Shown: piece after piece, positions 41,533 through 46,910 of the stretch | Layout of the letters: the number at the start of each line of letters is the position of its first letter | Position numbering within the stretch: position 1 is the first letter of the stretch | Assembly: GCA_963825525.1 (NCBI GenBank) | Contig: CAWGTN010000002.1 | Coordinates: 1,600,001-1,664,000 of the forward strand | Direction: 5' to 3' | Length of the DNA stretch: 64,000 bases | Source: an uncultured Chloroflexia bacterium | Lineage (GTDB): Bacteria; Chloroflexota; Limnocylindria; QHBO01 | The notes under the pieces: generated by a model | What the model saw: the letters and a program-made list of their open reading frames with translations, nothing else | Databases searched by the model: none | What the model was told of the DNA's origin: nothing | Made by a program: the position numbers and the translations under genes

Positions 41533-43506
41533 GTGATCAGCGATACCGCGATTCCACTGAGGTTCCAGACCGCCGAGGTCGGCGTGGACTGGCTTCAGTG
41601 CAACATCGAGTGCCAGGAAGGCTGCCCGGTCAACACGAACTGCCGGGGCTACCTGATGCTGGCCGCCGAGGGCCGGTTCGAGGAGGGCTACATCCTGGCC
41701 CGCGACCCGAACCCGGTTGCGGCGATCTGCGGCTACGTATGCTCCGCCCCGTGCGAGAAGGCATGCCGCCGAGCCGATATCGACAAGCCCCTCGCCATTC
41801 GCGCCATGAAGCGCTTCCTGGTGGATTGGCACTACGGCAACAACATGCCTGACAACGTCGTGGTCCAGGCACCGACGGGGCGCAATGTCGCCGTCATCGG
41901 TGCGGGACCGGCCGGGCTGGCCGCGGCCAAGGAGCTGGGCAGCTGGGGCCACGAGGTTCACGTGTACGACGCGCTCCCGTCTGGTGGGGGCACGACCCTC
42001 ATCGGCGTTCCCGCCTTCCGGCTGCCGCGCGACGTGATCGAGCTCGACGTCAACTGGGTGGCGAAGCATGGCGTGCAGTTCCACTACAACGTGGAGATCG
42101 GCCGTGACATCACCCTCGAGCAGCTGAAGGAGCGCCACGACGCCGTCGTTGTCGCCACCGGCTGCATGTTCCCGGTGGCGATGAACACGCCGGGCGAGGA
42201 GCTGGACGGCGTCATCTACGGGGTCGACTTCCTGAAGCGTGCCAACCTCGGCCAGCCGCAGTGGGTCGGGGAGCACGTCGTCATCATCGGCGGCGGATAC
42301 ACCGCCATGGACTCGTCGCGGACGGCCCTGCGGCTGGGTGCCAAGACGAGCACCATCGTCTATCGGCGTGGCCCGGACGAGATGGTGGTCGACGAGGAGG
42401 AGCAGCACGAGACCCGTTTCGAGGGCGTGCAGTTCGAGTACTTCAGCTCACCGGTCGAAGTCTTGGCCGGTCCGGACGGCAAGGTCAACGGCATGAAGTT
42501 CGTCCGCACCCGGCTCGGGCCGCCGGATGCCACCGGTCGTCGCAGCGCCGAGCCGATCCCGGGCAGCGAGTTCACGATCGCGTGCGACATGGTCATCCCC
42601 TGCACCAGCCAGGCATCGGACAACAACGTGCTCGGCGAGTTCGGCGCCAAGCTCAACCGGCACGTGGGCGTGACCGATACGCGCACCGTGGTCGACGGCG
42701 GCTCGCTTTCATCCTGGCGCACCGCCCCGCTCAACGGCACCACGCCGAAGGATGCGAACGGCAACTCGCTCAACGACCTGGAATTCGAGTTCAACCGCGG
42801 CAACGTCGTGATCAACGCCGATACCTTCGGCACCAACGTCGACGGTGTCTTCGCGGTCGGCGACTTCGTCACCGGTCCGGCAACCATCATCGAGGCGGCT
42901 GGCCTCGGCCGACGAGCCGCGCGCTCCGTCGATCGCTGGCTGGCGGGCGTCCGTGGCGAGGAGCTCGAGGAGCTGCCGGTCATCAACCGCGCGGTGATCA
43001 CCCAGAGCCTCGAGCACGACATGCCGCGCTTCTACGAGGGCACGCCGCGCCAGGAGATCCCGATGGCACCGCCGGAGCTGCGCCGCGACTTCACGAGCCT
43101 GGTCGAGGTCGGCTACGACACCCGCAGTGCGATCGACGAGGGGACGCGTTGCCTGCAGTGCAACCACAACATCAACATCGACGGTCCGCGCTGTATCCTG
43201 TGCGGGCTCTGCGCCGATGTCTGCCCCGAGGGCGTGATCTACATGATCGACAAGGCGCAGGTCGGCGGCGACGATCCGGAGCAGGGCTTCTTCCAGTCGT
43301 GGCCGCGCGGCATCGCCATGATCATCGACGAGGAGCGCTGCATTCGATGCAACCTGTGCGTGGAGCGCTGCCCGACCAACTGCATCACCATGGACCGGCT
43401 CGAGCTCGAGCGGTTCACGCCTGACGGGAAGGTTCTGTTGGAGAGCTACAAGGACAACGTGCTCGGACAGGTCGGCCAGCAGGCCGGGATGCCGGTGGAC
43501 CGATGA
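41533..43506 (+). CDS. NAD(P)H:FAD/Fe-S oxidoreductase (GltD/NfnB/DsrL-like) with a C-terminal 2[4Fe-4S] ferredoxin domain
   Basis: Fe-S motifs CQEGCP and [19 protein letters not shown] (FAD); [16 protein letters not shown] plus YRR (NADP preference); [17 protein letters not shown] and [12 protein letters not shown]. Confidence 0.92.
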
Positions 43507-44222
43507 ACGCCGTGATGCGCTTCATCAAGGAGTCCGCGCTGTGGCGCAGCCTCTTCCGTCAGCCGTATCCCAACACCAGCCGCACCCGCGCCCTGGCGGT
43601 GATGAACAACGTGTTCCTGCACCTCCACCCGGTGCGCGTGAAGCGCCATGCCGTCCGCTACACATACACGTTCTGCCTCGGCGGGATCAGCTTCTTCCTG
43701 TTCCTGGCGCTCACCGTGACCGGCCTGTACCTGATGTTCTTCTACGTGCCGTCGGTCAGCCGTGCCTACCAGGACATCCAGGCCATCGAGGCGTCGGTCG
43801 CGTTCGGCACCCTGGTTCGCAACATGCACCGCTGGGCGGCGCACCTCATGGTGCTCACCGTCTTCCTGCACATGATCCGCGTCTTCTACCACGGTGCCTA
43901 CAAGCCGCCGCGCGAGTTCAACTGGGTGGTCGGCGTGATCCTGCTCTTCCTGACCCTGATGCTCAGCTTCACCGGCTACCTGCTGCCGTGGGACCAGATC
44001 GCCTTCTGGGCCATCACCGTCGGCACCCAGATGGCGCTCTACGCGCCGCTCCTGGGACAGGAGTCGAGCTTCTTCCTGCTCGGCGGCATCCAGGTCGGCC
44101 AGGAGACGCTGCTCCGCTTCTACGTCCTTCACGTGATCGCATTCCCGCTGATCGCCGCCATCTTCATGATCGTCCACTTCTGGAGGATCCGGAAGGACGG
44201 CGGCATCTCGGGTCCGGTGTAG
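43503..44222 (+). CDS. Cytochrome b6-type N-terminal subunit of a Rieske/cyt b complex
   Basis: YTFCLGG (heme ci Cys); HRW...H and H-x14-H heme ligands; GYLLPWDQ; ends ISGPV. Confidence 0.95.
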
Positions 44223-44238
44223 GGTTAGGGATGAACCG

Positions 44239-44856
44239 ATGACGATCGAGAAACGGCCGAACGCGACGGCCGACAAGAACGCCCCGACGCAGGCGCCGGA
44301 GCGGGCGCCCATCGTCTCGCCGGGCAGCGGTCCGAAGCTGCCGGGGCCGCCCGGCGTGCCCGGGACGGAGCGATTCCGCCTGCTCGCCTACGTCAAGCAG
44401 GAGTCGATGGTCCGCGTCGACAAGCGTCCGGACGAGACGCTGCTGACCTGGCCGCACCTGCTGCGCGCCGAGTTCCTGATGTCGATGCTCATCAGCGGAC
44501 TGCTGGTGGTGACGTCGCTCTGGATCCAGGCGCCGCTCGAGGAGATGGCGAACCCGGCGGTCACGCCGCACGTCGCCAAGGCGCCGTGGTACTTCCTGGG
44601 CCTGCAGGAGATCCTGAGCTACTTCAACGCCACCGTCGCCGGCGTGATCGTGCCGACCTTCTATCTGCTGGGGTTGGCAGCCATCCCGTTCATCGACCGC
44701 ACACCGTTCAAGGCGGCCCGGGACCGCAAGCTGATGTGGGTCTTCTTCCTGTGCCTCATGCTCGGCGGGCTGCTCGTCACGTTCATCGGCTCATTCTTCC
44801 GTGGCCCGGGATGGAACTGGGTCTGGCCGTGGGAGGGGCTCTTCTTCAACCTATGA
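44239..44856 (+). CDS. Subunit IV-like C-terminal cytochrome b subunit
   Basis: TWPHLL, APLEEMANP.VTP, KAPWYFLGLQE (PEWY-equivalent) and PFIDR. Confidence 0.9.
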   Translation: MTIEKRPNATADKNAPTQAPERAPIVSPGSGPKLPGPPGVPGTERFRLLAYVKQESMVRVDKRPDETLLTWPHLLRAEFLMSMLISGLLVVTSLWIQAPLEEMANPAVTPHVAKAPWYFLGLQEILSYFNATVAGVIVPTFYLLGLAAIPFIDRTPFKAARDRKLMWVFFLCLMLGGLLVTFIGSFFRGPGWNWVWPWEGLFFNL

Positions 44857-45509: not shown

Positions 45510-45512
45510 CCG

Positions 45513-46319
45513 ATGCTGCTGAAGACGCTCGGCGTCATCCTGGTGACGGCCCTCTCCGCATTCACCCTCCTCTACTGGGTGACCGACAACCCCCGGCGCG
45601 ACGAGATCGCGACGGCTCATGACGACGAGCTCCTCGAATACGGCGAGATCATCTTCAGTGCCGATCCGGCCGAGCCGGCCGCTGCCGGATGCGCCAACTG
45701 CCACGGACCCGAGGGCTTCGGCGGGGAGGAGGGGGCGCCCGCAATCGGACCGAGCCTGCACACGCGGAGTCTCGCCGACAAGCTGAAGGTGAACGGCAAC
45801 TACGTCCACCTGGCGGTGAGCTACGGCGGCGTCGTAGTCTCCGGCAACGTCAACTCGGCGATGCCCGCGTGGAGCGCGGAGGTCGGCGGCCCGCTGAATG
45901 TGCAGCAGATCGACGCCGTCTCGGCGCTCGTCCAGTCATGGGCCGCCGAAGCCGACGAGCAGCCGATCGAGGACGTCCCGAACACGGAGGAGGCCGGCGC
46001 CGAGGTCTACACCGCCGCCGGCTGCGTCGCGTGCCACGGGGCCGATCTGGCGGGCGGGACGGCCGGGCCGAACATCCAGGGCATAGGCTCGGCGGTCATC
46101 ACCGAGTTCGAGAACTTCCCGACACCCTCGGGTGCCGACCAGATGGTTGCGGATTACGACGAGGACCCGAGGATGTTCCTCGAGAAGTGGATCAGGGACT
46201 CGTCGGCGAACTACAACGACGGCCAGGCGACCGGCATGCCTCCGCATTCCGAGGGCGCCGTCAGCGAGAGCGCGCTGCAGGCGCTCATCACCTTCCTCCT
46301 GGCCCAGACAGGTGGGTAG
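45513..46319 (+). CDS. Membrane-anchored diheme c-type cytochrome
   Basis: N-terminal TM helix; CANCH...MPAW and CVACH...MPP. Confidence 0.92.
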   Translation: MLLKTLGVILVTALSAFTLLYWVTDNPRRDEIATAHDDELLEYGEIIFSADPAEPAAAGCANCHGPEGFGGEEGAPAIGPSLHTRSLADKLKVNGNYVHLAVSYGGVVVSGNVNSAMPAWSAEVGGPLNVQQIDAVSALVQSWAAEADEQPIEDVPNTEEAGAEVYTAAGCVACHGADLAGGTAGPNIQGIGSAVITEFENFPTPSGADQMVADYDEDPRMFLEKWIRDSSANYNDGQATGMPPHSEGAVSESALQALITFLLAQTGG

Positions 46320-46328
46320 GAGGATCGC

Positions 46329-46910
46329 ATGACCACGACGACCGGCTACCGACCGCGGGGCGGCGTGAATCGCCTGCTTGGCTGGGCCGACGACTTCACC
46401 AGCTGGTTCCTCCATGGCCACGAGACATGGCTCGTGGCGGTGCTCAAGGGCGTTCCGCTCTTCCTGTTCGTCTACTTCCTGCTCACCTACGTGCCGAACT
46501 ACGTCTACTACCTGACGACCGTCGAGCTTCCGTTCCTGCGCTTCAGCGACGACGTGGGCTTCCTCATCGCAAATGGCGTGGCGGGCGGCAACTTCGCCCT
46601 GCTGATCCTGCTGGCGGTGGGCGTCCAGGCCTCTCGCGGCAGGCGCGGCTTCGGGTGGGCGTTCATTCGAATCTTCGTGTTCCTCAACTACCTGATGACC
46701 GTGCTCCTGCTCGTGCCGCTGCTGGCGTTCAACCTGGCCGGCGGCTCGTTCTGGCCGGTCACCATCACGCTCCAGTCGGTCGCCTTCGGCATGATGGTGG
46801 CGGGGCTCGGGGCGGCCTCGTGCGTCTACCTCCTCTTCGAGTACCGCCGCATCAACCGACGCGACGCCGAGCTGGCGACCCGGCACAGCGCGGAGCTCGC
46901 GCGGCGCTGA
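46329..46910 (+). CDS. Uncharacterised four-TM protein in the Rieske/cyt b operon
   Basis: AGGAGG RBS, starting 9 nt after the cyt c stop; 193 aa, hydrophobic. Confidence 0.75.
   Translation: MTTTTGYRPRGGVNRLLGWADDFTSWFLHGHETWLVAVLKGVPLFLFVYFLLTYVPNYVYYLTTVELPFLRFSDDVGFLIANGVAGGNFALLILLAVGVQASRGRRGFGWAFIRIFVFLNYLMTVLLLVPLLAFNLAGGSFWPVTITLQSVAFGMMVAGLGAASCVYLLFEYRRINRRDAELATRHSAELARR

Follow-up and report, generated by a model that had tools for sequence, protein, structure and literature searches.

The anammox bacterium Kuenenia stuttgartiensis has two bc complexes with NAD(P) oxidoreductases, and it has been proposed that bifurcation of quinol electrons in them drives the reduction of NAD(P)+ (PMC12954380). 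The two gene clusters (Kuste4569–4574 and Kustd1480–1485) encode a b6-like four-helix cytochrome b, a subunit IV and a Rieske protein, together with a flavoprotein (Kuste4570 and Kustd1483) that combines FAD, an NAD(P) site and four Fe-S sites. AlphaFold3 models described in that report place a flavoprotein monomer under the cytochrome b dimer, with four Fe-S sites, and predict an extra heme b, held in Kuste4571 by His43 near Arg247 and in Kustd1481 by His62 near Arg266 and Lys267 (PMC12954380). Here we analyse an operon of the same kind from an aerobic soil bacterium of the Chloroflexota, a Candidatus Limnocylindria metagenome-assembled genome (MAG). It fills positions 41533–46910 of the 64,000-nucleotide stretch of contig CAWGTN010000002.1 that was analysed (the window), and encodes a Rieske/cytochrome b6-type complex headed by a flavoprotein of the same family as Kuste4570 and Kustd1483. 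On balance, and with modest confidence, we favour the view that the flavoprotein is a subunit on the cytoplasmic (N) side that couples NADP(H) to the bc complex, most likely with NADPH as the source of electrons.

The arrangement seen in the window, a short cytochrome b with a CxGG motif beside a large, Cys-rich NAD(P)-binding oxidoreductase, is also that of subfamily G of Dibrova 2017 (PMC5600118). That study notes such proximity 'in many other cases' of its tree, assigns no function to it and treats complexes of this sort as membrane-anchored dehydrogenases; the anammox homologues are reported there, after de Almeida 2016, to be expressed as complexes with cytochrome b and the oxidoreductase (PMC5600118). 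Dibrova 2013 and the supplementary tree of the 2017 study aside, the literature that was searched contained nothing relevant to the pairing in Limnocylindria, Acidobacteria or Chloroflexi. The kind of system is known; the new details are its occurrence in this lineage and in an aerobic setting, its diheme cytochrome c and its status as the only complex III found.

The flavoprotein also has relatives with soluble partners. In DsrL the domains follow each other in the same order, from a two-cluster domain at the N-terminus through an FAD domain, in which the NAD(P) domain is embedded, and a linker to a 2x[4Fe-4S] ferredoxin domain at the C-terminus, and DsrL-2 is NADP(H)-specific and carries a YRR motif like the window protein (PMC7596348). 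Here the partner is a membrane cytochrome b6 rather than DsrAB, and two Cys of the N-terminal clusters, those of an RCLQC motif, come after the flavin body instead of at the N-terminus. The NfnB-like subunit of the NfnABC and StnABC complexes (9n5u_A, 9bov_A, 8oh5_C) is the best match in both sequence (4e-100 to 5e-91) and fold (Foldseek E-values of 5e-49 to 1e-47, TM-score 0.65–0.66 normalised to the query), and it shares with NfnB, GltD and the window protein the Cys pattern C-x3-C-x3-CP ... C-x3-C-x3-C ... RCxxC. These chains are 950–1180 aa long and belong to soluble HydABC-like complexes, whereas the window protein has no such partner and ends after its two-cluster ferredoxin domain. Cytochrome b6f with bound ferredoxin:NADP+ reductase (FNR), as in the cyclic flow of chloroplasts and cyanobacteria, is an analogue in idea only, being an N-side NADP(H) flavoenzyme on a complex that has also kept heme cn (PMC5600118); unlike the window flavoprotein, FNR has an unrelated fold and no Fe-S clusters, and is encoded outside the pet operon.

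Gene content of the operon and the host genome

Six open reading frames (ORFs), all on the + strand, make up the operon. They are tightly packed, with gaps of −4, 16, −4, 3 and 9 nt in gene order and ATGA start/stop overlaps at 43503 and 44853. The first (41533..43506, 657 aa, GTG start) encodes the flavoprotein, a predicted peripheral NADP(H)-type FAD / 4x[4Fe-4S] protein resembling NfnB, GltD and DsrL. It is followed by cytochrome b6 of the four-helix type (43503..44222, 239 aa; Pfam Cytochrome_B, 1.2e-46), subunit IV with three transmembrane segments (44239..44856, 205 aa; Cytochrom_B_C, 1.6e-11), the Rieske [2Fe-2S] protein (44853..45509, 218 aa; Rieske, 1.8e-7), a membrane-anchored diheme cytochrome c (45513..46319, 268 aa; Cytochrom_C in two stretches) and a protein with four transmembrane segments (46329..46910, 193 aa) that matches no known family in Pfam or NCBIfam. 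An earlier note on this DNA, made from the sequence, had described a tight six-gene operon with ATGA overlaps, and the ORFs and Pfam assignments agree with that description; the motifs it named (GVPAFRLP, YRR, RCLQC, the ferredoxin Cys residues and two CxxCH) were all located.

The host MAG has 4 contigs with a total of 2.58 Mb and a completeness of 91.8%, at which all negative results for the host genome given here are to be read. Its sole match to PF00033 (cytochrome b) is the cytochrome b6 of the operon and no NrfD-type subunit of an alternative complex III was found in the genome, so that the operon encodes the only quinol:cytochrome c oxidoreductase found in this aerobe. The A-family heme-copper oxidases gave one strong match and one weak. 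The PntB transhydrogenase is present; NiFe hydrogenase was not found in the genome search. MqnA and MqnD gave no match in the genome, the matches to MenD were far below the cut-off, and no menaquinone pathway was recognised there.

The flavoprotein

Pfam places a Fer4_20 domain at residues 21–103, followed by Pyr_redox_2 and a C-terminal 2x[4Fe-4S] domain at 547–622. Along the chain are GAGPAG at 123 and YRR at 277, which belong to Rossmann domains for FAD and NADPH, GVPAFRLP at 158, and RCLQC at 539 in a linker, and the ferredoxin domain proper (554–617) has a CxxCxxCxxxCP motif at 554 and another at 603. No transmembrane segment was seen by hydropathy. By sequence, the NfnB-like chains of the Bfu-type NfnABC/StnABC complexes (9n5u_A, 3.9e-100; 9bov_A, 1.1e-97; 8oh5_C, 4.8e-91) come closest among solved structures, followed by NfnB (4ylf_B), GltD and DPD, the matches ranging overall from 4e-100 to 1e-66; the C-terminal domain resembles FwdF (5t5i) and NuoI. 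An AlphaFold2 model made from a 41-sequence alignment has a mean predicted local distance difference test score (pLDDT) of 83.7 and a pTM of 0.85, with 381–402 and 641–657 disordered. In Foldseek the same three chains came top with 9n5u_A first, then 8oh5_C and 9bov_A, each over 660–690 columns, as compared with ~480–520 for NfnB, GltD and DPD.

Residues C27, C31, C70, C74, C78, R539, C540 and C543 and both CxxCxxCxxxCP motifs are invariant in 41/41 homologues. C23 is kept in the family of the window protein and in P0121, aligns with a Cys of 9n5u_A, and is absent from the other lineages shown; the anammox proteins are short of one ligand, whereas the window protein has all eight Cys of the N-terminal clusters including C23. 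This supports the proposal of the earlier note that these clusters are completed by the distal RCLQC: eight Cys would be on hand for two clusters of the N-terminal domain, with RCLQC supplied from behind the flavin body. YRR (277–279) is kept in the Limnocylindria, Chloroflexia and Brocadia homologues, and the Acidobacteriota-type homologues in the alignment are without it and have an insertion at that site. The motif is described as holding the 2'-phosphate of NADP(H) in NfnB and as marking the NADP(H)-specific DsrL-2 (PMC7596348). A separate insertion of ~45 residues at aa ~372–416 (window 42646–42780) is found only in Limnocylindria family f1, and not in distant members of the class or in other phyla; its pLDDT is below 50 at aa 381–402.

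The likeness to the anammox proteins that the earlier note had drawn is borne out at the level of the family. The Brocadia flavoproteins are 38–40% identical to the window protein and fall in the same family tree, the cytochromes b6 are 59–61% identical, and the solved homologues NfnABC (9bov/9bp5) and FwdF (5t5i) are shared with those given for the Kuenenia proteins (PMC12954380).

Relatives of the flavoprotein have been named automatically 'NADPH-dependent glutamate synthase beta subunit-like oxidoreductase/ferredoxin', and its strong sequence matches to GltD and NfnB would fit the small subunit of a glutamate synthase, or an NfnB that belongs to an NfnAB transhydrogenase with its partner gene at another site. 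We regard this as very improbable. None of the NCBIfam GltD, gltA or Nfn-type models reached its cut-off among the 25 best listed (TIGR01316, TIGR01317 and TIGR01318 were far below), and the linker and ferredoxin domain are extra to GltD and NfnB. Just as the earlier note had reported, there is no NfnA or GltB among the window ORFs at 36–52 kb. A partner elsewhere in the genome, for which the note had allowed, was not found either: the NfnA-type domain PF10418 had 0 matches in the host genome, and the GltB-type domain PF01645 reached at best 26.1 and 22.5 bits, the two ORFs concerned being 482 and 144 aa long. The routine name for genes of this flavoprotein is 'glutamate synthase beta subunit-like'; in this genome no glutamate synthase was found. 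The window ORFs at 36–52 kb include no dsr genes either, no search of the genome for dsrAB having been made.

Co-conservation with cytochrome b6 in Limnocylindria

Near relatives of the flavoprotein are numerous, the best 120 proteins all being 83–92% identical, and most loci at 84–97% identity belong to MAGs with Candidatus Limnocylindria or Chloroflexota in their titles. Cytochrome b6 is the next gene in 76 of the 80 closest loci, which were selected by similarity to the flavoprotein, and the other 4 stop at a contig end. The projected interval from the flavoprotein stop to the cytochrome b6 start could be placed in 76/76, at −4 nt in 16 and at 5–23 nt in 60. The flavoprotein and cytochrome b6 evolve slowly and in parallel relative to the flanking penicillin-binding protein (PBP) and aldolase genes, the median identities across the 80 loci being 88% for both, 83% for subunit IV, 75% for the aldolase, 70% for the Rieske protein, 63% for the four-segment membrane protein, 61% for cytochrome c and 58% for PBP.

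Copies of the operon 83–94% identical to that of the window also occur under unrelated labels (L014, L023, L024, L029, L038, L052, L058, L072, L075 and L078, titled Binatia, Gaiellales, Steroidobacteraceae, Actinomycetota, Methylomirabilota, Zixibacteriota and Thermohalobaculum). These oddly labelled contigs are probably binning errors.

Across the class, the flavoprotein lies immediately upstream of cytochrome b6 in 31/31 loci, drawn from families f1–f4 and with flavoprotein identity down to 45%. Using the C-terminal module of the flavoprotein (linker plus ferredoxin domain, aa 470–657) as the query, the counts per family are equal for the module and for cytochrome b6, at 16/16 in f1, 16/23 in f2, 4/4 in f3 and 2/2 in f4, and the genera g13 (0/6) and g14 (0/1) are empty for both. 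Altogether 46 genomes of the class, including that of the window, comprise 39 with both genes, 7 with neither and 0 discordant. In 5 of the 7 genomes that lack cytochrome b6, a search with the whole protein gave only generic GltD-like matches of 38–43% identity, mainly over residues 21–375, with two further weak segments at residues 419–544.

The pairing in other lineages

Cytochrome b6 homologues are present in 251/401 of the Chloroflexota genomes sampled, a set that includes G038 and G227 (and in the cytochrome b6 tally also G272, G173, G344 and G145), flagged as unpublished. The C-terminal module is found in 109 of them, and by our reading of the two lists 107/109 also have a cytochrome b6 match against the background of 251/401; the two module-only exceptions are 76% complete genomes, and the genomes being related, the comparison does not amount to a statistical test. 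Among 19 loci from other Chloroflexota classes the flavoprotein stands beside cytochrome b6 once (L137, genome G359). There the two genes overlap and are followed by a response regulator, with no subunit IV or Rieske gene beside the pair and a second, long cytochrome b on another contig; such a two-gene module reads most simply as a putative NAD(P)H:quinone oxidoreductase. The remaining 18 loci, without the flavoprotein, have the order cytochrome b6, subunit IV, Rieske in 15 and Rieske first in 3.

A scan across phyla was seeded with an alignment headed by the G359 flavoprotein, and its 80 nearest loci are therefore biased to relatives of a linked protein. Cytochrome b6 adjoins the flavoprotein in 76/80; the 4 exceptions are three Thermomicrobiales/Sphaerobacteraceae loci and one Brocadia locus with only subunit IV inside the flank. 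The titles of the loci include many Acidobacteriota, Eremiobacteraceae, Omnitrophota, Zixibacteria, Ignavibacteriales, Bacteroidota, Actinomycetota, Syntrophaceae, Proteobacteria, Eubacteriales, Chloroflexia, Thermomicrobiales, Limnocylindria and two Brocadia, that is, the pairing is found in MAGs labelled with about 12 phyla. Three gene orders occur in the linked loci: flavoprotein, cytochrome b6, subunit IV, Rieske; flavoprotein, Rieske, cytochrome b6, subunit IV (most Acidobacteriota); and Rieske, cytochrome b6, flavoprotein (Brocadia pituitae, L148).

Two claims of the earlier note can be set against these surveys. It had made its proposal depend on co-conservation of the flavoprotein with cytochrome b, which is what was found within the class and in the distant loci alike. 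The position of the Rieske gene after cytochrome b, which it had called non-canonical, is the norm in Chloroflexota. The pairing itself is no peculiarity of this organism, cases beyond anammox being already in print (PMC5600118).

A quick maximum-likelihood tree of the flavoproteins was computed from 65 rows under LG+G4, with SH-aLRT as the only support measure and a long branch to the outgroup. In it the Limnocylindria proteins form a single starred clade of 12, each of the three main groups includes bc-linked proteins, and the proteins from Nitrospinota and Thermomicrobiales that are unlinked sit on long branches nested within linked ones. One locus titled Candidatus Limnocylindrales (L165) has an Acidobacteriota-type flavoprotein of 35% identity in the order flavoprotein, Rieske, cytochrome b6, which groups with Bryobacterales and Acidobacteriaceae in the tree; either the contig was mis-binned or the order has a second type of operon.

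The unlinked proteins bear on whether the flavoprotein is a subunit at all. It might instead be a soluble NADPH:acceptor oxidoreductase, DsrL-like or ferredoxin-reducing, whose only tie to the bc genes is co-transcription and which acts with another partner or in maturation or redox sensing. Stand-alone members in Nitrospinota and Thermomicrobiales and unlinked copies in other Chloroflexota would agree with this, as would the lack of a transmembrane segment and the example of DsrL, which shows that the architecture can serve a soluble partner. Set against it are the adjacency of cytochrome b6 in distant relatives despite three gene orders, the exact co-loss of the two genes inside the class, the existence of a module consisting of these two genes and the lack of any alternative partner gene conserved beside the flavoprotein; the anammox homologues, moreover, are reported in complexes with cytochrome b (PMC5600118). 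We consider a soluble enzyme quite unlikely, and are fairly confident that the product of the operon is a bc complex to which a flavoprotein of the anammox-type family is bound.

The cytochrome b6, Rieske and cytochrome c subunits

The two pairs of heme-b ligands in cytochrome b6, H109/H123 with a spacing of 14 and H210/H225 with a spacing of 15, align with the ligands of chloroplast b6 (E 2.6e-50) and are invariant in 38/38 sequences. C58 of the CLGG motif aligns with the heme-cn Cys35 of chloroplast b6. The earlier note had correctly seen that the heme-ci Cys and the His spacing of 14 are kept, and had wired NADP(H) to heme ci on the Qi side. This last point is not borne out for the family in general, for at the CxGG Cys site 105 flavoprotein-linked cytochromes b6 have Cys in 53 and Tyr in 45, and since Tyr takes the place of Cys in so many, coupling of the flavoprotein to the bc complex would in general be independent of heme ci. 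The replacement by Tyr is seen in many Acidobacteriota-type sequences. In some linked Acidobacteriota and Omnitrophota operons, cytochrome b6 and subunit IV are fused to one long cytochrome b, of 428 aa in L153, L167 and L212 and of 512–515 aa in L186, L192, L199 and L217.

The NCBIfam model cytb_ExtP (NF040969) matches the cytochrome b6 with 302.9 bits (cut-off 290). With the ExtQ model the neighbouring gene scores 52.8 against a cut-off of 150, other ext-type genes were not seen, and the name ExtP is probably too narrow for this cytochrome b6 subfamily.

The N-terminal LHLHP motif of cytochrome b6 contains an invariant His, H40. In the cytochrome b of Brocadia pituitae H38, R242 and K243 align with H40, R230 and K231 of the window protein, and the His-to-Arg spacing of 204 in Brocadia is the same as that of H43/R247 in Kuste4571 and H62/R266 in Kustd1481. 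By this arithmetic of residue numbers, as distinct from a direct alignment, H40, R230 and K231 may be the equivalents of the residues at the predicted extra heme. As a residue specific to linked cytochromes b6 H40 was rejected, being invariant in 105/105 linked and 18/18 unlinked sequences, and because of this the extra-heme site, if real, would belong to the whole subfamily. Only R29 is enriched in the linked set (R in 92 and K in 8 of 105, compared with Q in 10 and R in 4 of 18 unlinked), the sequences within these sets not being independent.

Subunit IV has an N-terminal extension of ~60 aa, predicted to lie on the N side, ahead of its three transmembrane segments (from hydropathy and sequence), and at the Qo loop it has KAPWYF instead of PEWY, retaining the W-Y and not the P-E. 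The Rieske protein has a twin-arginine-like N-terminus (SRRGFMRRML) and a single transmembrane anchor, with CPHLGC as box I and CLCHGSKY, including both Ser and Tyr, as box II. Its nearest solved chains are 9rk3_A (4.8e-11) and 9rk4_A (8.2e-9), which to judge from the depositors' names would be the two Rieske proteins of Kuenenia. The Leu of box II (window 45309–45332) is present in all 31 family-f1-type sequences, and elsewhere, three sequences excepted, the position is Pro (CPCH). Box II was considered as the mark of a special high-potential centre and rejected, as it does not correlate with flavoprotein linkage: the Chloroflexota Rieske proteins read are all CxCHGSxY, apart from one CxCHGSxF and one CPCHNSQF, whether the flavoprotein is linked or not, and the linked Acidobacteriota-type proteins are mostly CPCHGSxF.

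Cytochrome c has a transmembrane segment at residues 1–24 and two CxxCH motifs only (CANCH at 60 and CVACH at 171); it weakly resembles actinobacterial QcrC (NCBIfam, 42 bits, below the cut-off). The last protein of the operon has four hydrophobic segments and occurs at this position only in Limnocylindria(-type) loci, being found in 58/80 of the close loci, with the missing ones at contig ends. Compared with the anammox clusters, the operon has a diheme cytochrome c where theirs is of the hexa- or octaheme kind, no HAO-like subunit, a subunit IV of three rather than five transmembrane segments, the flavoprotein gene first and the Rieske gene after that of subunit IV; the host, furthermore, is an aerobe in which this is the only complex III found.

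Direction of electron flow

The mechanism that we favour starts from a quinol:cytochrome c oxidoreductase of the Rieske/cytochrome b6 type with a membrane-anchored diheme cytochrome c, to which the flavoprotein would be added as an extra peripheral subunit on the N side. It would bind NADP(H) at the FAD and relay single electrons over its four [4Fe-4S] clusters, with the C-terminal ferredoxin domain presumably docked under the cytochrome b6 dimer, so that electrons could pass between NADP(H) on the one hand and the hemes of the N side (bH and, in this case, heme cn) and the quinone at the Qi site on the other. In the steady state of this aerobe electrons would most likely pass from NADPH to FAD, along the Fe-S chain to the N-side hemes and on to quinone at Qi, which would make the complex a quinone/cytochrome c reductase fed by NADPH; its wire can probably run both ways. 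For the flow from NADPH to Qi taken by itself the chances are, in our judgement, about even or slightly less.

Several considerations lead us to place NADPH on the donor side. GltD and DPD use NADPH as the donor, and the flavoprotein is like them in having one Fe-S exit and no second flavin partner, which would make NADPH the donor here also. As the sole complex III found in its aerobic host, the complex would need a working Qi site. The quinone there should be a far better acceptor for bH than NADP+, which lies ~250 mV lower and across the membrane field, and this too argues for NADPH as donor. PntB being present, the supply of NADPH would be independent of the complex. A complex serving only donors at the level of quinone, such as atmospheric H2, was considered and rejected, NiFe hydrogenase not having been found in the host genome.

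The same complex could work in the opposite direction, with Rieske-bifurcated oxidation of quinol at Qo sending one electron to cytochrome c and the oxidase and the other through bL/bH, the Fe-S clusters and FAD to NADP+. We think this unlikely, and hold the same of its corollary, that the complex is a source of NADPH independent of the proton-motive force. In its favour, the family and architecture match those of Kuste4570 and Kustd1483, the subjects of the same proposal, the Rieske protein has the Ser and Tyr pair of Kuste4569, for which +303 mV was measured, and H40, R230 and K231 match by their spacing the extra-heme residues predicted in the anammox models. The nearest solved homologues also reduce NADP+ via the same module. 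The difficulty is that an ordinary Q cycle with a working Qi would be expected of the only complex III in a genome with an aa3-type oxidase, and Qi should out-compete NADP+ for an electron whose path would run against the membrane potential and uphill, to about −320 mV. PntB is present, no NiFe hydrogenase was found that would feed the quinone level only, and Chloroflexota complexes that lack the flavoprotein have the Ser/Tyr pair and H40 as well. In addition, the G359 module, with no Rieske or subunit IV gene adjacent, has no bifurcation site encoded alongside.

There are nevertheless a number of points that weigh against a bound flavoprotein fed by NADPH. In NfnABC and StnABC, the closest solved homologues, the module is reversible and is used for NADP+ reduction. 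One DsrL type is described as biased toward NAD+ reduction (PMC7596348), and the published proposal for anammox is the reverse direction (PMC12954380). Neither the direction of flow nor the potentials are fixed by sequence, and linked complexes cannot be told from unlinked ones by the Rieske Ser/Tyr pair or by H40. Binding of the flavoprotein in this lineage is likewise a prediction from sequence; a complex prediction of two cytochromes b6 with flavoprotein residues 470–657, run with separate alignments and no controls, scored 0.02–0.03 against a mark of 0.32, which speaks neither for nor against binding. The synteny seen throughout the class also takes in the PBP and aldolase genes and is hence weak on its own. 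Finally, 7/18 genomes of other Chloroflexota classes keep a flavoprotein homologue away from the bc operon, five Nitrospinota homologues (36–37% identity, from a search with P0125) are unlinked and lie near secretin, PDZ and nitroreductase genes, and the three Thermomicrobiales/Sphaerobacteraceae loci carry the flavoprotein without bc genes.

Surroundings of the operon

The operon is preceded by the PBP gene and followed by the class II aldolase-like gene, as assigned by Pfam. A scan for promoters and terminators gave 0 promoter-like sites and 4 terminator-like ones (1.8 expected), none of them at a gene end. RNA contigs of relatives (160–390 nt, 85–99% alike) from four metatranscriptome runs span the flavoprotein, cytochrome b6, subunit IV and Rieske genes, and in runs X8 and X10 one contig bridges the 3' end of the flavoprotein gene and cytochrome b6, with 37 letters on the shorter side. 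Such contigs are no proof of a single transcript, and DNA carry-over is possible.

The genome has only one other Fer4_20 protein, an 800-aa ORF ~40 kb before the window (G000:C2:1558743-1561142, − strand) that lies inside the nuo operon between NuoF-like and NuoL-like genes. It joins a NuoG-like 2Fe-2S N-terminus to a GltD/NfnB-like FAD/NAD(P) body and C-terminal 4Fe-4S motifs, which suggests an unusual electron-input module of complex I. At window 49529–50026 (− strand), 2.6 kb downstream of the operon, an ORF whose translation has an IscA/HesB-like Cys tail (CGCGSSF-type) may encode an Fe-S cluster carrier.

Implications for Limnocylindria and the wider family

Whether bc complexes bearing an NAD(P) oxidoreductase use quinol to produce NAD(P)H is a question hitherto linked with the slow-growing anammox bacteria. 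Our survey shows the same flavoprotein family adjoining cytochrome b6 across about a dozen phyla of MAG labels, which gives a wider choice of candidate organisms, probably easier to grow than anammox bacteria, in which the coupling could be tested. It also shows that heme cn, multiheme cytochromes and a five-helix subunit IV are features not essential to the pairing. In Limnocylindria the flavoprotein heads the only complex III found, whose cytochrome c is of the ordinary diheme kind, and an aa3-type oxidase is encoded at another place in the genome. It is a possibility, to which we give a low probability, that these aerobic soil bacteria and, by homology, many Acidobacteriota and members of other groups have as their main or only complex III a Rieske-based bifurcating complex, in which one electron of quinol goes to oxygen while the other is driven uphill, over hemes b and the four clusters, to form NADPH. 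If true, a mechanism so far only proposed for anammox would operate in lineages some of which grow in air.

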